Numbered from the stretch's first letter, positions 3,196 to 42,032 are shown. The stretch is DNA of 64,000 nucleotides from Candidatus Nomurabacteria bacterium (GCA_943349945.1 CALQZS010000001.1:130803-194802), one strand, 5' to 3'. The notes: a model not told the origin generated them from the letters alone. Numbers and translations: made by a program.

Positions 3196-3723
3196 TTAGC
3201 AGCCAGCAACTACGCTGCCGCCAGTGCCGCTACTGACATGTACTGAGCCAAAAGTTGCTGCAGTACCTCCGTAAGTAACGTTACCTGCCTCTAGCACTGT
3301 GCAGATTTTGTAGTTTTGGGTTGTTGCACCTGCTGCAGGCGCTGCACCTACCGCTGTGTCTGTACCTATAACGTACTGACATGCTGCTGATGCAACTGCG
3401 CTACTTGCCGCTGGTGCACATGCTGTACCTGCTGTACCTACTGTTGGGTCTCCATATGCAGAGAAGCTTACAGGACTTGGGCCAGTACAGGTGTTTGCTT
3501 TTGCACTTGCGCCTGTGCAGGTTGCCAAGGCAACTGCGGGGTCAGTGTCGGCAAGCTGTATTGCCTTTGCCATTTCTTTAAGTGACGAGACGCGTTCTGC
3601 ATCACGTGCCTTGCCGCGAGCACTATTAAGAGAAACCAGCACAATAGATGCCAAGATACCGATGATGGCGATAACCACCAAGAGTTCTATAAGGGTGAAA
3701 CCTTTCGTAAACGTTTTGCGCAT
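3196..3723 (-). CDS. Type IV pilin (PilA-like)
   Basis: N-terminus MRKTFTKG|[22 protein letters not shown]; the C-terminal part is Ala/Gly/Thr-rich with Cys pairs. Confidence 0.85.
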
Positions 3724-3875: not shown

Positions 3876-4556
3876 ATGTCAAATCGGGCACCCATAGCCA
3901 CGGGCGAGTGGTACCATTGCTACACTCGCGGAGTGGACAAGCGTATCGTCTTTGAAACCCGATCTGACTATGAGCGTTTCTTGGCATACCTTTATATAGG
4001 AAACGGTACCAACCTGCTCCGTCTTTCAAACATACAAGACAAGCGTTTGGTGTCCGTACTCACCAATACACGTCTGCAGCGCGGAGAGCCCTTGGTCGAC
4101 ATAGGCGCATACACCCTTATGCCTAATCATGCGCATTTTATATTACGACAAACACACGACCAGGGCATCGCCACCTTTATGCAGCGAGTTTTTACTGGAT
4201 ATACACAATACTTCAACAACAAACACGAACGGACGGGAGCGCTCTTTTCAGGAACATACAAGTCGAAACACATACTGGACGACCGCTATCTAAAGCAAGT
4301 AACTGCCTATGTATTGCTAAACCCGGTGGAATTATTTGAACCCGCATGGAAAGAAGGAGTGGGCAACTTGAACCACATCGAAAAACAGGTTCGCACCTAT
4401 CCTTATTCTAGTCTCGTTGATTTTTATGGGTCACAGCGCCCAGAAAGCAGTATCACGACAAACACGCTGCACGCGTACTATGATCAGCGTCCTAGCCTTA
4501 CAGACATGCTTGCGGACGCGCAGGCATTTTATAGAGAACACGAGCCTAAAGCTTGA
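3876..4556 (+). mobile_element. IS200/IS605-like Y1 (HUH) transposase of the REP-associated (RAYT) type
   Basis: HUH motif LMPNHAHFIL and catalytic-Tyr region GALFSGTYKSK. Flanked by 46-nt direct repeats. The ATG at 3876 is preferred to the GTG at 3858, which lies inside the repeat. Confidence 0.8.
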
Positions 4557-4571
4557 AACACCGCCCGCTCC

Positions 4572-4617
4572 CCCACCTGCGGGTTAAACCAGCAGGTGAA
4601 ATGTGTGGTGTAATATA
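4572..4617 (+). repeat. REP-like 46-nt repeat, copy 2
   Basis: Sequence cccacctgcgggttaaaccagcaggtgaaatgtgtggtgtaatata, in the same orientation as copy 1. Confidence 0.85.
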
Positions 4618-4655
4618 TTTTGAGAAGTAAAAAGGGAGGGGTTGTTTGTGTTGTG

Positions 4656-5870
4656 CTAGATGCTGGTGGTGCTGCTGTAGATAGGGAGCAAGACTGCCGC
4701 CAACAAAAAGCCCACACCCACCGCAAGCGCCACAATAAGCACAGGTTCGATGAGCGACACCAAAGTGTCGACCGCTGCATTTACCTCGCGGTTATAGAAC
4801 TTGGCCATACGCTCCAAAATGTTGCCCAACTCGCCTGTTTCTTCACCGATCTGGAGCATCTGCACCATAATGGCTGGTATTTCGTCTGGATATTGCGCAA
4901 GCGTCTGCGACATAGGACTACCGGCCTTCACTCCTTCGAGCGCTTCGAGCAAAATGGTTTGGTAGACTGCGTTTTCTATAACTGACGAAGTGATTTCGAG
5001 TGAGCGTACTGCCGATATACCGGAAGACAACATCACATGCATGTTGTCTGCAAAGCGAGACAGGTAGAGTTTTTGGTAGAGTGTGCCCACGTACGGAATA
5101 GAGAGCTTTGCACGCGCCATACTAAGTCGTCCACGCGGCGTCTGGCTGTAGCGATACAAAAAGTATCCGCCGATAATAAGCGCCACGAACAAGAATATGC
5201 CATAGTCGGTCAAAAACGCACTAAAGCCAAGTATGACTTTGGTGTATACGGGCAACTCCTGCCCACTTTCCGACAAAATAGAACCTATTTTTGGAATAAC
5301 CACCGTAAGCATCAGCGTCATCACCGCAAAGAAAGTAAAGAGAATGAACGCCGGGTAGATGAGCGCATTGCGAGCCTTGGAAGTCAGCTCGTAGGAGCGG
5401 TCTATGTAGTCGGCCAAAAATTGGAAGGTCTGGTCGAGCTTGCCGGACTCCTCGCCTGCACGAACCATGTTGACATAAAAGTCAGAAAAAACTTTAGGGT
5501 GCTTTACCAGCGCTTTGGAGATGCTGTTACCCGCCTGCAAGTCGTCGCTTATTTCGGTAAGAACCGTGCGCAAGTAGGGCTTTTCTGCCTGCTCGGCCAA
5601 CAAACGGAAAATACGCAGTGCAGAAACTTGCGCCTCGAACAAGGTCGCCAACTGGCGAGAAAGGAGCACCACATCGCGGCCAGTTACGCCGCCAAAAAAT
5701 GGCAGCTGCACGGTCAAACCATGTAGTCCTTTTGGCGCATCGCTGGTGAGCGCCGTGATGGTAAATCCTTTGCGCTGCAGCGACTCAATAGCCGCGTCTT
5801 GTGTGGCAGCGTTTACTACACCGGCTTGTGCCTTTCCTGCTTGGTCGAGTGCTTCGTATTTAAATTCCAT
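4656..5870 (-). CDS. pilC: Type IV pilus platform protein (GspF/PilC family)
   Basis: 404-aa polytopic protein with the duplicated GspF-type architecture, next to the pilT/pilB ATPases. Confidence 0.9.
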   Translation of the reverse strand: MEFKYEALDQAGKAQAGVVNAATQDAAIESLQRKGFTITALTSDAPKGLHGLTVQLPFFGGVTGRDVVLLSRQLATLFEAQVSALRIFRLLAEQAEKPYLRTVLTEISDDLQAGNSISKALVKHPKVFSDFYVNMVRAGEESGKLDQTFQFLADYIDRSYELTSKARNALIYPAFILFTFFAVMTLMLTVVIPKIGSILSESGQELPVYTKVILGFSAFLTDYGIFLFVALIIGGYFLYRYSQTPRGRLSMARAKLSIPYVGTLYQKLYLSRFADNMHVMLSSGISAVRSLEITSSVIENAVYQTILLEALEGVKAGSPMSQTLAQYPDEIPAIMVQMLQIGEETGELGNILERMAKFYNREVNAAVDTLVSLIEPVLIVALAVGVGFLLAAVLLPIYSSTTSI

Positions 5871-22599: not shown

Positions 22600-22627
22600 G
22601 TAGGTAATTATATACCCATAACCGTTG

Positions 22628-22714
22628 CGGAGAGAGCGAGATTCGAACTCGCGGGCCCAATTAAGGGCCGACAGTTTAGTAAACTGTTGATTTAAACCAC
22701 TCATCCATCTCTCC
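22628..22714 (-). tRNA. Type II tRNA-Ser; anticodon reads ACU by hand folding
   Basis: Fold: GGAGAGA-TG-GAT-GAGTGGTTTAA-ATC-A-ACAGT-TTACTAA-ACTGT-C-GGCCC-TTAATT-GGGCC-C-GCGAG-TTCGAAT-CTCGC-TCTCTCC-G. It has a long variable arm and a G73 discriminator. Confidence 0.8.
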
Positions 22715-22926: not shown

Positions 22927-23011
22927 GGAGACGTGTCAGAGTGGTCGAATGTGCCTCCTTGCTAAGGAGGTAGGGCGCAAGCCCTCGTGGGTTCGAATCC
23001 CACCGTCTCCG
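22927..23011 (+). tRNA. tRNA-Ser (GCU)
   Basis: Acceptor GGAGACG...CGTCTCC, anticodon arm CCTCC-TTGCTAA-GGAGG, long variable arm, T arm GTGGG-TTCGAAT-CCCAC. Confidence 0.9.
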
Positions 23012-23298
23012 CAAAGCTAAATTTTGATATATTCTCCTATCTAAATTTTGCTTATGTGTGAACGGGAGAGGGATTCGAAGGACGGAAGAAAAGCTCTGGG
23101 AGAGCTTTTCTGAGTCGGGGTCGCGAGATTTTTCAGCAGAAAAATACTTGTGACCGAATCCCACTGTCCACAAATACTACGCGGCGTAGAATTGAGTCGA
23201 AGCCGAATCGTTTTAATCGTCTCCGCTTAGTTTTTTGTAGTGTTCTACTGTAGAGCATTTTATGTGGTATAAACAAGCCATATCATTAATTTTTTAAT

Positions 23299-29985: not shown

Positions 29986-31104
29986 CTAGTCATTGTCTGG
30001 CAGCAAATCAATATCGCCCACGCGTGGCAGCGCGCCATCAAAGCGTCGCTCCGCCTTGAGGTACGTCTCGAGTTCTACAGCGCTCTGCAGCGCAGTATCA
30101 AACTGCACCACCGCCGTGTCATAGTCGGCTGCACCAAAGGCAGTGTCGCCCGCACTCATCAGCACGCTGGTCGAAGCAAGCACGGTTTGGACATACTCTG
30201 CCAATTTTTCATCTTTTAGAGAAAGAGCGTGGATACGCCCAAGCACCAAACGCGTACGCGCCTTCAATTGTGCTGCAACAGCTTGGCCACTAAGCGACCC
30301 TTCGTCTGGCGCCGGCGCAGCCACCTGCGGCACTGGCTCGCTGGTTGTTGCCGCTATGGACATCACTTTGGCTGCTTTTGCAGCCACTGCCACAGGCTCG
30401 CTCCGGCGCTCCAAGACCACACGCTTACTTTCTTTGACAGGCTTGTTTGCCTCTGCTGCTGCGGTGGCGTGCATCCGCACCCGTACCGCAAACTTTCGCG
30501 ATGTGTTTTTTGTTTCTTCGTCGGGACTTTGTTCGCCCAAGTGGCTCAACACTGCATCGTTGACCGCCAAGGACGACGCGAGTTGCGTGCTAATTTGTGC
30601 TGCGGCACCTGGGTCCTCTATCTCGAGCACCTCTGTCAAAGACTGCGCTGCCGCCACATGCTCGTCGAGCTGCAGCTGCAGCTGCTCTGCCACGGTGGTC
30701 GTAAACTTGCCCTGCGAGGCAAGATCTTGTGCCTCTTCTACGCGACGCTCGGCCAATACTGCTTGCGCCTCGGCTTTGGCGGTGGGCGTTGTGGCAAGTG
30801 CTATTTCTACAAACTCGTTTACGTGGATCTTCACCGCGTACAGCAAGTCGCCAGGCAATGCGGTTTGTGCCGCGTAGCTGGTGCCGCCGCCGCTACCCGC
30901 TACAAACACAAACAATATGAGTGCCGCGAAGGTACGCTGCAATACTACATGGTTGAATATAAAAAAGTGATACGGACTTTGCACCAAGGGAGACGCGGGG
31001 TTAAGCGCCATGCGCTCGCTCAGGCGGGCACGCAAAGTAGCCTTCTCTTGTACAGTAAGGCGGACACGCAAACCTTCGTTTTTAAATTCTTCGGTAAATT
31101 TCAT
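29986..31104 (-). CDS. DUF5667-like membrane protein (putative anti-sigma partner)
   Basis: Single TM segment, then a PGDLLYAVK motif and a long Ala-rich helical region. Overlaps the ECF sigma gene by 4 nt. Confidence 0.65.
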   Translation of the reverse strand: MKFTEEFKNEGLRVRLTVQEKATLRARLSERMALNPASPLVQSPYHFFIFNHVVLQRTFAALILFVFVAGSGGGTSYAAQTALPGDLLYAVKIHVNEFVEIALATTPTAKAEAQAVLAERRVEEAQDLASQGKFTTTVAEQLQLQLDEHVAAAQSLTEVLEIEDPGAAAQISTQLASSLAVNDAVLSHLGEQSPDEETKNTSRKFAVRVRMHATAAAEANKPVKESKRVVLERRSEPVAVAAKAAKVMSIAATTSEPVPQVAAPAPDEGSLSGQAVAAQLKARTRLVLGRIHALSLKDEKLAEYVQTVLASTSVLMSAGDTAFGAADYDTAVVQFDTALQSAVELETYLKAERRFDGALPRVGDIDLLPDND

Positions 31105-31637
31105 GATTGTGCTTCTGGTTCCATGAGCGTACGGAGCTTTTTGAGCCCGCGGTGTATCCGCACCGATACCACATTTTCGCTCTCTTCTATCGACTCTGCA
31201 ATCTCTTTTGGACTAAAGCCCTCTATATAGCGCAGCGCCAACACCTCGCGGTATGGGTCGGCCAACTTGGCCAGCGCCGCGAGCGCGCGCTTGCCGTCGA
31301 AGCGGTCCATAGCAGCTTCGAGCGCGTTTGTCTCGTCGGCAGGTAAAAGGGACTCCACCGTCTCGCCGCCCTCGCCGCTTTCGACCATCTGTTCGAGCGA
31401 TGTGGTTTTGTGCTTGCGGTACTCGTCGACAATAAGGTTATGTAGCGTGCGGTAAAAGAAGGGACGGTAGTCGTGGATTTCTTCGCCGCGCGAGACATAG
31501 GCCCACGCACGCAGAAAAGTCTCTTGCGTCAAGTCGAGCGCCCGCTCCCTGTCGGAGAGCCTGAGTGTCGCATGCCGGAAAAGCTCGTCGGCATACCGCT
31601 CAAAGGCAGCAGTAAATTGTTTTTCTGTGTCTACCAT
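31101..31637 (-). CDS. ECF-type sigma-70 family RNA polymerase sigma factor
   Basis: Region 2 (DLTQETFLRAW) and region 4 (SPKEIAESIEESENVVSVRIHRGLKKL). Confidence 0.9.
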   Translation of the reverse strand: MVDTEKQFTAAFERYADELFRHATLRLSDRERALDLTQETFLRAWAYVSRGEEIHDYRPFFYRTLHNLIVDEYRKHKTTSLEQMVESGEGGETVESLLPADETNALEAAMDRFDGKRALAALAKLADPYREVLALRYIEGFSPKEIAESIEESENVVSVRIHRGLKKLRTLMEPEAQS

Positions 31638-31712
31638 ATATAGAGACGGATGAGAGCCTCTACTCTTTCATCGCCTACCTATTCTACCCTATACAACCCG
31701 TACACTAGACGC

Positions 31713-31745
31713 AAAAACACCACCCCTAAACAGGGTGGTGTTTTT
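31713..31745 (-). terminator. Terminator (bidirectional shape) closing the orphan minus-strand unit
   Basis: On minus: AAAAA-CACCACCC-tgtttag-GGGTGGTG-TTTTT. Confidence 0.8.
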
Positions 31746-31865
31746 AAACATCCATAGGGCCACGAGCCATGCACAGTGGTTAGAGGAGAGAGTTTTTTGC
31801 TCCGTCTTGGCTAGTGCAATTTGGAGCTTCTCACACAGCGTGACTCATGACCCTATAGAGATTTT

Positions 31866-31920
31866 TACCTTTTCGTCCTTTTGGACTCATCAGCCCGGGC
31901 ACACACCCGAGGAAAGTCGG
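31866..31920 (-). ncRNA. Type III hammerhead self-cleaving ribozyme motif
   Basis: Minus strand: CCGACUUUC^CUCGGG-UGUGUG-CCCGGG-CUGAUGA-GUCC-AAAA-GGAC-GAAA-AGGUA. The full conserved core is present, and helices I, II and III are all formable. Confidence 0.8.
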
Positions 31921-32009
31921 ACGACACGCAGCGTTGTTGCGCCGTGTCGCCCGTTAGCCCCGGACTAGCCGGGGCGGCCGGGGATGATTTTGCGGTAATC
32001 ATCCTGTTG

Positions 32010-32402
32010 TTAGGTGCCGCATATAGCGGCCACGAACTGCTTCGCAAGTTCTTGGCGATTCAGTTCTGACGCCCGATCGTCGCTGGGGACGCACGGGGAC
32101 TTAGTTAACCCGTACGCCAAAGAAGCGTAACTCACCGCCATCGACGGATTGTAACCGCCCCAAAAGCGAGCGGCCTCAGCCGCTGCCAGAACGGCGAACT
32201 TCTTCGCCGCCTGTGAGTCCTCAATGGACACATCGAATGGTCGGTCAGCGTGACCGAAAACCCCAAAAAGGGCCCTTTCGATTTCATAGAGTACCCGCTC
32301 TGAAATCTCTCCACCCACTATCATCCATTGGACGACCTGTGGGTTGGGCATCCACAGCCCAGCGACAACAAGCGCTGCCATTCGCGCATGTACTATTGTC
32401 AT
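32010..32402 (-). CDS. Hypothetical 130-aa protein (orphan)
   Basis: GGAG RBS 7 nt upstream of the ATG; no recognisable motif. Sits between the structured leader and the hammerhead. Confidence 0.55.
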   Translation of the reverse strand: MTIVHARMAALVVAGLWMPNPQVVQWMIVGGEISERVLYEIERALFGVFGHADRPFDVSIEDSQAAKKFAVLAAAEAARFWGGYNPSMAVSYASLAYGLTKSPCVPSDDRASELNRQELAKQFVAAICGT

Positions 32403-32767
32403 TTTACTCTCCGTTTTTTTGAGCGTTGGATTTTGCCAACGCTCGGGTTTAGAACATCAGGGTGCAATTTCTTGCGATCCCTCTTGCCGCACCGAGCATT
32501 AGAGTGCATCCATCTGCACTAGGCAGACAGGCTCATGACTCGGTAAGGCGAAGAGGAACAACAAAGGTGATCTTTCGATCGTTTGTTATTTCCCGACGCC
32601 AATATTTGGGTCGGGATCCCGACTTTGCGGGATCTATTCGCTATTCTTTTGTCAAAGAATGTCTCTCTTTCGAGAGAAGTCGGATGGCAAAATGGGCCAA
32701 ATATAAAAGATGTGCCTTTTGCCGTCCGGCTTCTCCCTACGACTCTCTCCTCTAAGAGGTAATCGTT
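32403..32767 (-). ncRNA. Unclassified, highly structured leader RNA of about 365 nt
   Basis: At least seven hand-verified hairpins, for example 32662-32677, 32643-32660, 32615-32634, 32682-32727, 32479-32556, 32561-32586 and 32421-32444. No credible ORF. Confidence 0.5.
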
Positions 32768-32773
32768 AAACCC

Positions 32774-32802
32774 ATTATACCCCCTTATTCCGAGTTTGTC
32801 AA
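32774..32802 (-). promoter_or_regulatory. Consensus sigma-70 promoter TTGACA-17 nt-TATAAT
   Basis: Minus strand ttgacaaactcggaataagggggtataat; both hexamers are perfect and the spacer is 17 nt. Confidence 0.75.
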
Positions 32803-32889
32803 GTAGTTCGAGGCGCTCATAACCAAACAGGCAAAATAGCCCTATACATAAGGCTTTTTAGGCACTCTAGAGCCTGCCTTGCTTTGTAG

Positions 32890-34056
32890 CTACCGCACAG
32901 CCTTTGCAACCGCCTCCATGACCCCTTTGTCGAAGGGCCCAGGGATTATTTTGTCTGCCGTAGGCTTTTTGACCAGCGCAGCCAAGTTGTGGGCGGCAGC
33001 CAACTTCATCTTGTCGGTGATTTTGGTGACCTTGTGGTCGAGCGCTCCGCGGAAGATGCCGGGGAATGCTAGCGAATTGTTGATTTGGTTTGGGAAGTCG
33101 CTCCGCCCTGTGGCCACCACAGCTGCCCCTCCCCGCATAGCATCGCCCGGCATAATTTCGGGAGTCGGGTTGGCAAGCCCAAAAACAATCGCACGCGGTG
33201 CCATCATTTGCACGTGCCGCGCCTGCATCAGCCCCGGGCCAGAAACCCCCACCACAGCGTCCGCCCCCGCAAGCGCATCTTCTAAACCTCCCTGTATCTT
33301 GCGTGGGTTTGTGTGTTTGGCCAGCGCCTGCTTGTGCGGCTCGTTACTATTCACCGTGATGATTCCTTTACTGTCGAGGACGATTACATCTTTAACACCC
33401 GCCAAGAGCAGCAGCTTGGTTACGGCGGTGCCTGCAGCACCCGCGCCAGCCACTACTACTTTTAATTTCTTTAGATCTTTCTTTACCACCTTTGCTGCGT
33501 TAATGAGCGCTGCGAGCACCACAATTGCTGTGCCGTGCTGGTCGTCGTGCATCACGGGGATGTTGAGCGCCGCCTTTACCCTGTCTTCTATCTCAAAACA
33601 ATTGGGCGCAGTAAAGTCTTCGAGGTTGATGCCACCGAATGCGGGCGCAATGCGCACAATAGTCTCGACAATCTCGTCGACGTTTTGTGTATCGAGCACA
33701 ATCGGGAATGCGTCTACGTCTGCAAACGACTTAAACAGCGCAGCCTTACCCTCCATAACCGGCAGCGCACCATAGGGCCCGATGTTGCCCAACCCCAACA
33801 CTGCCGAGCCGTCGGAGATAACCGCGACCATGCGTTTTTTTATTGTGTATTCTTTTGCGAGCGTCTCTTGTTTTTTTGTTGGGTGGAGTTTGCCTTTAGT
33901 GCCCGCGACAAGTGTCGACACCGCCGCCACGCCCGGCGTGTATACCAAACTCAAGTCGTCTCTGTTTGTAACGGGCGCTGCTGCCTGGATGCGAATTTTA
34001 CCCCCGAGTTTTTTGTGTAATGCAATTGCCTTTGCTGCGGTGTCGTTTTTTGCCAT
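32890..34056 (-). CDS. NAD(P)-dependent malic enzyme (short form)
   Basis: VYTPGVA, VISDGSAVLGLGNIG and GAGAAG Rossmann motifs. The start at 34056 avoids overlap with recG. Confidence 0.85.
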   Translation of the reverse strand: MAKNDTAAKAIALHKKLGGKIRIQAAAPVTNRDDLSLVYTPGVAAVSTLVAGTKGKLHPTKKQETLAKEYTIKKRMVAVISDGSAVLGLGNIGPYGALPVMEGKAALFKSFADVDAFPIVLDTQNVDEIVETIVRIAPAFGGINLEDFTAPNCFEIEDRVKAALNIPVMHDDQHGTAIVVLAALINAAKVVKKDLKKLKVVVAGAGAAGTAVTKLLLLAGVKDVIVLDSKGIITVNSNEPHKQALAKHTNPRKIQGGLEDALAGADAVVGVSGPGLMQARHVQMMAPRAIVFGLANPTPEIMPGDAMRGGAAVVATGRSDFPNQINNSLAFPGIFRGALDHKVTKITDKMKLAAAHNLAALVKKPTADKIIPGPFDKGVMEAVAKAVR

Positions 34057-36378: not shown

Positions 36379-36531
36379 CAAGAAGAAAGGGATTTCCCCT
36401 TACAGGGGCAGTACAGGTCTCGTATCGCACTTCATAAACTTTATGCGATATACTCGACCTTTTCAATCCCTGCACATACAGTGCATAGGCACTGTATTCG
36501 CGCCAATACTCGCTATGCTCGTTCTATTGTG

Positions 36532-36603
36532 TGGGCGCGGCAGGGATTGAACCTGCGACCAGTCGTGTATAAGACGACCGCTCTACCACTGAGCTACGCG
36601 CCC
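36532..36603 (-). tRNA. tRNA-Ile with UAU anticodon
   Basis: Fold: GGGCGCG-TA-GCTC-AGTGGTA-GAGC-G-GTCGT-CTTATAC-ACGAC-TGGTC-GCAGG-TTCAATC-CCTGC-CGCGCCC-A. Confidence 0.85.
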
Positions 36604-41652: not shown

Positions 41653-42018
41653 GGGGATGCCAGGCCTAGACAATGAAGACGCCTGTTGAATGCGCGCAGT
41701 AGAAGTCTGGACCTTCTTAAAAATCCGGAAACAATAACTGCAAAAAACAGTGTTTCGCCGTATTTCGCGGCGAACGACTTCCAGTTCGCGTTCGCGCGAG
41801 CGTAAGTCGCATCTACCCTTCCTCTCTCTTGCGGGTTGGGATAGGTGTTATATAGCAAGAGTATAGTTGCAAGAGCCGCTCTGACTTGCATCCGAACATA
41901 AGAGCTGCAGGAAGTTATGATTTCGTTTGCTTTGCCCATAACAGCCTAAAGAAACAACAAGCGAACTACACTACGTAGAAGCTTCAGCAGCACTTCATTG
42001 CACGGCGGTTCAATTCCG
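41653..42018 (+). ncRNA. ssrA: tmRNA
   Basis: The 5' GGGGATG pairs with the 3' CATCTCC, including G3:U. T arm GGCGG-TTCAATT-CCGCC. Internal tag ORF GCA AAA AAC ... GCG TAA. Downstream of smpB. Confidence 0.85.
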
Positions 42019-42032
42019 CCCATCTCCACATA

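Follow-up and report, generated by a model that had tools for sequence, protein, structure and literature searches.

Hammerheads are chemically the best-understood ribozymes. The function of the hundreds of bacterial examples is still open, and a part in the processing of messenger RNAs (mRNAs), of 3′ untranslated regions (3′ UTRs) or of polycistronic transcripts has been suggested for them and stands unproven (2019 review, PMC6765202). The closest described systems are the bacterial type III hammerheads (RF00008; PMC3088659); Perreault et al. (2011, PMC3088659) described tandem copies that flank single genes and that cut polycistronic RNAs in vitro. Here we analyse positions 31867-31917 on the minus strand of a 64,000-nucleotide (nt) stretch of DNA from Candidatus Nomurabacteria bacterium (GCA_943349945.1, CALQZS010000001.1:130803-194802; the whole stretch is called the window throughout), which carry every sequence and structure feature of a type III hammerhead and for which self-cleavage is predicted. 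The element shares with the described bacterial type III hammerheads an identical 13-nt catalytic core, a three-way junction in which helix III is open while helices I and II are closed, a C at position H17 and an intergenic position; it differs from them in its compact loops (GUGU-type and AAAA), in its score of 31 bits on RF00008 (gathering score 48.5), as in the subclass as a whole, in belonging to a subclass encountered mostly in metagenome-assembled genomes (MAGs) of Patescibacteria, and in not lying beside phage or integrase genes. The resemblance to the clustered hammerheads of prophages (Perreault et al. 2011, Figure 3) lies in a placement between cistrons, seen in two loci from other genomes, one with four copies (L025) and one with the hammerhead between two cassettes of open reading frames (ORFs; L037), whereas the window has a single copy followed by a structured RNA and a terminator, not by a gene.

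The predicted parts of the element, with the evidence for each in brackets, are the following:

31867..31917, minus strand: type III hammerhead ribozyme, bounded by the two strands of helix III (sequence; descriptor match; RF00008, 31.0 bits; model R1, 71.1 bits, a score that is partly by construction)
31913..31917, minus strand: helix III 5′ strand ACUUU (16.5-16.1), pairing with AAGGU at 31871-31867 (sequence; changes among orthologues)
31911..31912, minus strand: predicted scissile bond, 3′ of C17 (31912) and 5′ of C1.1 (31911) (position relative to the core)
31894..31911, minus strand: helix I hairpin, CUCGGG(U)-GUGU-(G)CCCGGG (sequence; family covariation)
31887..31893, minus strand: core strand C3-A9, CUGAUGA (sequence; invariant in six orthologous loci)
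31875..31886, minus strand: helix II, GUCC-AAAA-GGAC (sequence)
31867..31874, minus strand: core G12 A13 A14 (31874-31872) and helix III 3′ strand A15.1-U15.5 (31871-31867) (sequence)

Re-reading of the minus strand reproduced exactly the reverse complement of 31866-31920 on which the original prediction had been based, namely that of a complete type III hammerhead within an orphan gene's 3′ UTR, and every assignment made there holds in the sequence. All invariant positions are occupied as expected, C3 U4 G5 A6 N7 G8 A9 (with U7 as N7), G12 A13 A14, the A15.1-U16.1 pair (31871/31913) and H17, which is C17 at 31912. Helix I consists of 6 base pairs (bp), C31911-G31906 with C31899-G31894, one of them U.G, and carries the loop UGUGUG, whose outer U.G can add a seventh pair and so close a GUGU tetraloop; helix II has 4 bp and the loop AAAA; helix III, which is left open, has 5 bp, one of them G.U. 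Loops thus close helices I and II, and the 5′ and 3′ ends lie in helix III, the topology of type III, in line with the three helices of 6, 4 and 5 bp proposed earlier, and the cleavage site placed between 31912 and 31911 agrees with the position of the core.

A loose type III descriptor (CUGANGA, GAA, A15.1-U16.1, H17 and at least 4 bp per helix) matched this site and no other in the whole window, and among 1000 sequences shuffled from the window by a first-order Markov model only 2 gave any match. A strict pattern, CTGATGAGTCC-N(4-30)-GGACGAAAAGG, scanned over 185,579 species with one genome each, returned 27 loci, about 2 being expected by chance (our own arithmetic, with uniform base composition). 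These loci contain 25 full type III hammerheads, 24 of them matched by the pattern and one a second copy in L025, and one hammerhead is of type I. The type III architecture of the 25, which the retrieval pattern did not demand, shows in three features: a 5-7-bp hairpin (helix I) abuts the core on its 5′ side, position 17 is never G (C, A or U in 25/25), and the 5′ strand is complementary to AAGG. Helix I sequences vary freely with pairing kept, and the loops recur, 11 of the 25 having (U)GUGU(R) as loop I and 13 having AAAA as loop II; this recurrence, with helix I covarying, and the retention of two A next to GGAC in orthologues with a longer loop II, are suggestive at the sequence level of the tertiary contact between loops I and II that gives hammerheads fast cleavage at physiological Mg2+. 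In an alignment of the 25 family members (A3), from which the window and its relatives were excluded, 97% of cells are paired and nine pairs show double compensatory changes, values reached by none of 500 shuffles, while sliding of the 3′ partners, used as a control, left 34-53% paired. The double changes affect six of seven helix I pairs and three of five helix III pairs; helix II, being fixed by the retrieval pattern, had no room to vary. R1, a covariance model derived from A3, had its sole match in the window at 31865-31919 on the minus strand, with 71.1 bits (E=2e-17), a score to which helix I, loop I, the helix III 5′ strand and N17 alone contribute independent information.

The label is Saccharibacteria, Patescibacteria, Magasanikbacteria, Adlerbacteria, Peribacteria or Paceibacterota in 18 of the 27 loci, and the remainder comprises a few MAGs labelled Gammaproteobacteria, two loci from Bacillota or Negativicutes and one from Acidobacteriota. 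We take these hammerheads to represent a compact subclass, common in genomes of Patescibacteria (candidate phyla radiation), with a helix I of 6-7 bp and a (U)GUGU(R) loop, a GUCC/GGAC helix II whose loop is rich in A, and an open CCUU/AAGG helix III. A literature search for hammerheads together with Patescibacteria, the candidate phyla radiation or Saccharibacteria gave nothing relevant, the literature covered being incomplete, and the subclass may already be present in unpublished or subscription-only collections. The hammerhead is a known class, and what appears to be new is this member of it and the evidence for a compact subclass of the candidate phyla.

The surroundings of the independent family members are alike in several respects: in about 18 of 25 only 0-2 nt separate the hammerhead from the end of a stable hairpin, a same-strand upstream ORF ends 24-155 nt before the ribozyme in most, and several have a terminator within 20-40 nt downstream or a ribosome-binding site directly after the ribozyme. 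In L025, a MAG labelled Gammaproteobacteria, four hammerheads of the same subclass (1147-1201, 2378-2432, 3659-3713 and 5097-5151) are spaced by 1.2-1.4 kb with single genes between them. These upstream ORFs, abutting hairpins, terminators or ribosome-binding sites and L025 copies fit the role in intercistronic or 3′-end processing considered for bacterial hammerheads (PMC3088659, PMC6765202). No theme of gene association emerged, since Pfam and PHROG searches with the genes upstream of ten other family members were nearly all empty and yielded one EamA transporter and one PHROG of unknown function.

Some details of individual family loci may be recorded here. Each L025 copy has a similar hairpin before it and a conserved GTTCGTTGAAAAT..TAATAG motif after it, two of the copies carry U4->C in the core and may be inactive, and 5265-5299 of the same locus is DUF805b RNA (RF02914). 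The helix III 3′ strand (AAAGG) sits as a Shine-Dalgarno sequence, with an ORF start 5-13 nt downstream, in L008 (2183-2195), L031 (3880-3888), L020 (1280-1292) and L015 (6455-6472), and in these cases cleavage and dissociation of helix III could unmask the ribosome-binding site.

Orthologous loci were found through homologues of the ORF upstream of the hammerhead and through a second anchor, a neighbouring protein of 275 amino acids (aa). The syntenic loci comprise RecG, malic enzyme, a variable region, an extracytoplasmic function (ECF) sigma factor with a DUF5667 anti-sigma, and an ABC transporter. A search of related genomes, as had been proposed with the prediction, found the motif in L001, L002/L003, L014, L037/L039 and L040/L041, whereas L004 has the ORF without a hammerhead; L014 is labelled as a Candidatus Saccharibacteria MAG. 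In six orthologous versions the 13 core nt and the GUGU loop are unchanged, and substitutions in the core, which the original prediction had held to be damaging to it, were thus not encountered. Six substitutions fall in the stems, all of them one-sided, and five keep the pairing, among them U16.3->C (G.U to G-C), G2.2->A (U.G to U-A), A16.5->G (U-A to U.G) and a loop-closing G->A (U.G to U-A). The only large difference is a loop II insertion of 16 nt in L001, L002, L014 and L040 (28 nt from core to GAA, versus 12 nt), which folds a covarying CCGC/GCGG hairpin of its own and leaves two A next to GGAC in place. The p-distances of the hammerhead (0.04-0.08) and of the structured RNA directly downstream (0.035-0.096) lie far below the synonymous divergence of the adjacent ORF (pS 0.26-0.32, against L001 and L002), and both elements are therefore under purifying selection. 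Core and helices, the 71.1 bits to R1 (in part built in), family covariation and selection together bear out the proposed identity of the element.

The hammerhead is part of an apparent single transcription unit that extends from promoter to terminator on the minus strand:

32774..32802, minus strand: sigma-70 consensus promoter TTGACA-17-TATAAT, 12/12 (sequence scan)
32403..32770, minus strand: highly structured 5′ leader of 368 nt (minimum free energy z-score -8.8)
32407..32444, minus strand: conserved hairpin GAGCGUUGG/CCAACGCUC with A-run and GGAGAG ribosome-binding site (kept in all loci)
32010..32402, minus strand: lineage-restricted 'orphan' ORF of 130 aa (homologues; ratio of nonsynonymous to synonymous substitution rates, dN/dS)
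31958..32004, minus strand: two more 3′-UTR hairpins, GGAUGAUU/AAUCAUCC and CCCCGG/CCGGGG (folds)
31919..31952, minus strand: stable hairpin (GGGCGACACG...CGUGUCGUCC), its end 1 nt upstream of helix III (folds)
31751..31866, minus strand: conserved structured RNA of ~115 nt, directly 3′ of the hammerhead (folds; conservation)
31713..31745, minus strand: intrinsic terminator hairpin AAAAACACCACCC-UGUUUA-GGGGUGGUGUUUUU (sequence; folds)

No other promoter-like site was found in 31500-33000. The leader, for which Rfam gave no family, is conserved at the head of the array of small genes described below in L001, L002, L004, L037, L040 and L043, and the hairpin at 32407-32444 has a compensatory C-G to U-A change in L004 and also precedes several cassette ORFs in related loci. 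The 130-aa ORF has homologues in four clusters (90%-identity clusters) with identities of 61-100%, a dN/dS of 0.13-0.61 and no Pfam or PHROG family, and is a real, lineage-restricted protein gene; an AlphaFold2 model of its product from a 4-sequence alignment was all-helical and, with a predicted local distance difference test (pLDDT) score of 51, unusable. The 3′ UTR of an orphan gene is a fair description of the site, because the dN/dS points to a real gene, homologues are few and the two databases gave no match. The spacing from the ORF stop, estimated before as about 90 nt, was measured as 92 nt, and a hairpin with a U-run at 31745-31713 confirms the position upstream of a terminator. Folding of the region is modular and the ribozyme is flanked by hairpins, the one at 31919-31952 being G+C-rich and of 10 bp.

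The downstream RNA folds into a G.U-rich helix of ~19 bp (GGGUCAUGAGUCACGC / GCAUGGCUCGUGGCCC) around an exposed CU-rich AAAAAACUCUCUCCUCUAACCAC, which is complementary to GGAGAG ribosome-binding sites. The helix is stable only on the minus strand because of its four G.U pairs, and RNA and terminator together have a folding z of -6.5; Rfam gave no match to this RNA. It also occurs without a hammerhead, in L004, L038, L043 and a second copy in L037 (L037b), with homology beginning exactly 3′ of helix III, and a metagenome scan with a CU-rich 20-mer found a single locus, L035, with a related small RNA and no hammerhead. The L035 sequence (1165-1300) is a more distant relative and is placed after a tRNA-like sequence.

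We consider it likely that the element is a functional type III hammerhead within one transcription unit, and that its cleavage separates a hairpin-capped mRNA from a small RNA with a 5′-hydroxyl end. The transcript would run from the promoter (32802-32774) through the structured leader of ~370 nt, the hairpin with the ribosome-binding site, the 130-aa gene, the three 3′-UTR hairpins, the hammerhead and the structured RNA of ~115 nt to the terminator (31745-31713), and the ribozyme would fold during or just after transcription. The short open helix III probably stacks on the hairpin that ends 1 nt upstream, and this hairpin may help helix III to form. A cut after C31912 would yield, upstream, the mRNA of the gene, ending in the strong hairpin and GACUUUC with a 2′,3′-cyclic phosphate and, downstream, an RNA of ~200 nt with a 5′-hydroxyl, made up of ribozyme body, structured RNA and terminator. 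Dissociation of the 5-bp helix III would then allow the two RNAs independent fates, and in related genomes with several cassettes the hammerhead would serve as an intercistronic processing site. The earlier proposal, that self-cleavage detaches the 3′ tail and terminator from the mRNA, is plausible yet incomplete, as the 'tail' is a conserved structured RNA that is also found without the hammerhead. Because of this, and because only 1 nt separates a strong hairpin from helix III, the formation of two defined RNAs seems likelier than simple loss of a tail. The unit is simple and well delimited, and the hypothesis of mRNA 3′-end formation with release of a small RNA sharply predicts product sizes and the end chemistry at 31911/31912.

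Comparable outcomes are known from protein enzymes and from engineering. RNase E frees small RNAs from 3′ UTRs in enterobacteria (CpxQ, SroC), and RNase III sites occur in the early mRNA of phage T7. As in those systems, a terminator-ended structured RNA would be freed from the 3′ end of an mRNA, and processing would leave hairpin-capped mRNAs; the difference is that the RNA would cut itself, with 5′-hydroxyl and 2′,3′-cyclic phosphate ends as the predicted outcome, versus 5′-phosphate and 3′-hydroxyl. RiboJ is an engineered 5′-UTR insulator derived from a plant satellite RNA. In both cases a hammerhead with an adjacent hairpin would uncouple two segments, here an upstream cassette that varies between strains and a downstream RNA that is constant, whereas the present element is natural and lies 3′ of a gene.

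Several observations weigh against the formation of two RNAs by an active hammerhead. The best Rfam match on 31700-32050 (351 nt) is RF00008, Hammerhead_3, over its full length, but its 31.0 bits (E=6.5e-5) are below the gathering score of 48.5 bits, and at gathering Rfam reported a transfer-messenger RNA (tmRNA) and three tRNAs in the whole window and no hammerhead; the original prediction had put forward this very search and had regarded the lack of a match above gathering as telling against it. We find that the gathering test carries no information in this case, since not one of 19 hammerheads of this build, from 18 loci in other genomes, reaches gathering for any hammerhead model. The threshold is a curation cut-off, not a biochemical feature, and Rfam annotation at gathering entirely misses a compact subclass that is widespread in Patescibacteria genomes. 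Minimum free energy folding leaves the 5-bp helix III unformed, and 22 retrieval nt (helix II, core and helix III sequence) behind the R1 score come from the motif itself. Helix I of L040 has a G.A mismatch, the one pair-breaking change among the orthologues. These orthologues are close (4-10% divergent) and the flank outside the hammerhead, that is the downstream RNA, is equally conserved, so that core invariance alone has little power; the loci L004 and L043, without a hammerhead, make it dispensable. Finally, we infer co-transcription, actual cleavage, the fates of the products and any stabilising or insulating consequence from sequence.

The main rival, which we hold to be unlikely, accepts an active hammerhead and has it down-regulate the gene: the terminator and 3′ RNA would be cut off and the ORF mRNA laid open to 3′ exonucleases, possibly under some conditions only. 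Lowered expression through 3′-UTR ribozymes has been proposed for Clec2 and shown with twister reporters in bacterial 3′ UTRs. The Clec2 hammerhead, which Martick and colleagues are said to have described in 2008, is reportedly a discontinuous one in mammalian 3′ UTRs that is split by a long insert and reduces expression. The element studied here likewise lies in the 3′ UTR of a protein-coding mRNA and would remove the normal 3′ end, whereas, unlike the eukaryotic and split Clec2 ribozyme, it is contiguous and bacterial and has what may be a protective hairpin before the cut. The geometry of down-regulation is identical to that of the release of two RNAs, reporter work on 3′-UTR ribozymes that affect expression is cited in the review (PMC6765202), and some genomes lack the hammerhead at the locus, which would make its effect a modulatory one. 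The 10-bp G+C-rich hairpin located 1 nt before helix III, however, with an equivalent in ~18/25 family members, looks like a 3′ protector, and the folds show no ligand-binding or alternative-pairing element that would compete with the ribozyme.

The release of two RNAs by the hammerhead has also to be seen against the variability of the locus. The related loci form a variable cassette array of 1 to 5 small ORFs, with a ParE-type toxin pair nearby and a palindromic element (CCCUUUUAAGC...UUUAAAAGGG) between ORFs. L014 and L002 have flanks that are 96-99% identical around an ORF that is replaced by an unrelated one of 108 aa (L014 7309-7710 versus L002 4995-5444), the two breakpoints lying directly behind the ribosome-binding site and precisely on the hammerhead's 5′ edge. 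L037 has an ORF 97% identical to that of the window and an extra cassette (103-aa ORF; L037 2899-3546) at ...AAAAATCTCTAT/AGGGTCATGAG (the slash marks the junction), just 3′ of the hammerhead, which therefore lies between two cistrons. Junctions are also found at a repeated ...TCTCTAT/NGNG.CA.GAGTCA sequence, the L037 insertion being at ...TCTCTAT/AGGGTCATGAG. In L004 the ORF is followed by the repeated palindromic element, of ~110 nt, in place of the hairpins and hammerhead. Each of the loci L002, L004, L037, L040 and L043 has 2-4 copies of this element between small ORFs, and the window has none; copies were located as follows:

L002: ~4550-4670
L004: 3560-3643, 4850-4945, 5395-5490 and 6040-6145
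L037: ~2170-2290 and 3420-3545
L040: ~440-560, 940-1060, 1910-2030 and 2820-2945
L043: ~1090-1200, 1740-1860 and 2230-2350

Three parts follow one another in the ~110-nt element: a hairpin whose large loop is conserved, the long hairpin CCCUUUUAAGCRC...UGGWGRAUUUAAAAGGG (CCCUUUUAAGCAC...GGUGGAUUUAAAAGGG), and a GGGGAAUGUUCCCC hairpin. Its long hairpin has 10 bp, an invariant 2x2 CA/GA internal loop, another 6-7 bp and a variable apex, and folding of the element favours the sense strand over the antisense strand by 4-15 kcal/mol. Rfam returned no family for it, even in a 146-nt search, and a similarity to twister was dropped, as the 146-nt search at E up to 10 gave no ribozyme family. Since the element takes the position of the hammerhead in L004, we regard it as a candidate processing or self-cleaving element. 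The logic of guilt by association led to twister, pistol and hatchet, and by the same logic the replacing element is a worthwhile candidate for self-cleavage. Two interchangeable modules, of which the hammerhead is one, thus occupy the 3′ ends of cassettes in a variable array with its own promoter, and the window has a minimal version with one cassette. The related loci also offer natural controls, in the form of near-identical genomes in which the gene upstream differs, a cassette has been inserted, or the ribozyme has given way to a structured element unrelated to it. Apparently new, too, is the context, with a conserved small RNA fused to a ribozyme, exchangeable upstream genes and an uncharacterised element as a positional substitute.

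A wider and rather speculative scheme, to which we give little weight, would unite these features. Exchangeable cassettes of small orphan genes would be expressed from one strong promoter and end in a conserved small RNA, with their boundaries set by self-processing RNA modules, namely the hammerhead and the undescribed ~110-nt element, which would be a new ribozyme class or a dedicated RNase site; cleavage would mature a 5′-hydroxyl small RNA whose CU-rich loop (CUCUCUCCUCU) targets the GGAGAG sites of the cassettes.

The same variability could be read as mobility, with the hammerhead as an end module of mobile cassettes that acts in their mobility, in RNA circularisation or in recombination and not in the processing of host mRNA, a reading that we find improbable. 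It would draw on the array in relatives with its nearby ParE-type toxin pair and repeated palindromic element, on the ORF swap between L014 and L002, bounded by the ribosome-binding site and the hammerhead 5′ edge, and on the L037 insertion immediately 3′ of the hammerhead. The array has the look of an integron, to which a tyrosine-recombinase integrase with attI and attC sites would belong, but the neighbouring genes inspected (malic enzyme, RecG, a toxin-antitoxin pair and the ECF sigma operon; the wider 64-kb window was not screened for recombinases) include neither an integrase nor a reverse transcriptase, and inspection of the palindromic element found no attC cores (R''/R', RYYYAAC / GTTRRRY). 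A single hammerhead per unit, moreover, cannot excise a circle, and the partners of the hammerhead vary on either side, while most cassette junctions lack it. There was no sign of a phage element either, because the scans of viral contigs turned up nothing relevant, the hammerhead pattern having no match and a CU-rich 18-mer one unrelated coding match (L036); megablast of 30000-34000 against phage genomes gave no match.

That the motif arose by chance or has decayed, with no catalytic role and with a conservation that reflects the surrounding RNA or DNA region, could appeal to the sub-gathering Rfam score and to the equally conserved neighbouring sequence, but is hardly credible in view of the 2/1000 shuffles with any match, the 71.1 bits (partly by construction) to a model built from independent family members, the orthologue substitutions and indel, all located where a hammerhead tolerates them and with the 13 core positions untouched, and the intact hammerheads of L014 and L037, where the flanks change.

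Beyond the terminator, a TGAAAG-N16-CGTCT sequence at 31638-31680 on the minus strand lies ~8 nt before the ATG (31637) of the ECF sigma gene. It resembles the ECF promoters of the Bacillus type, and suggests an autoregulated sigma gene with a nearly leaderless mRNA. As the sigma gene has this motif of its own, the downstream RNA would be the end of the upstream unit and not obviously a sigma leader. A function of that RNA as leader of the ECF sigma operon was considered and rejected, given its terminator end, the separate ECF-type motif, and L002 and L014, which keep the RNA without the sigma gene.

Other RNA genes were noted in passing. A Saccharibacteria MAG contig that also carries a hammerhead has a group I intron match of 66.4 bits among tRNA genes (L010 1501-1725, minus strand). 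The tmRNA of the window lies at 41653-42031 (plus strand), with the predicted tag AKNSVSPYFAANDFQFAFARA, and its tRNA genes are tRNA-Ile(UAU) at 36531-36603 (minus strand) and two divergently placed tRNA-Ser genes at 22627-22714 (minus strand) and 22927-23012 (plus strand).

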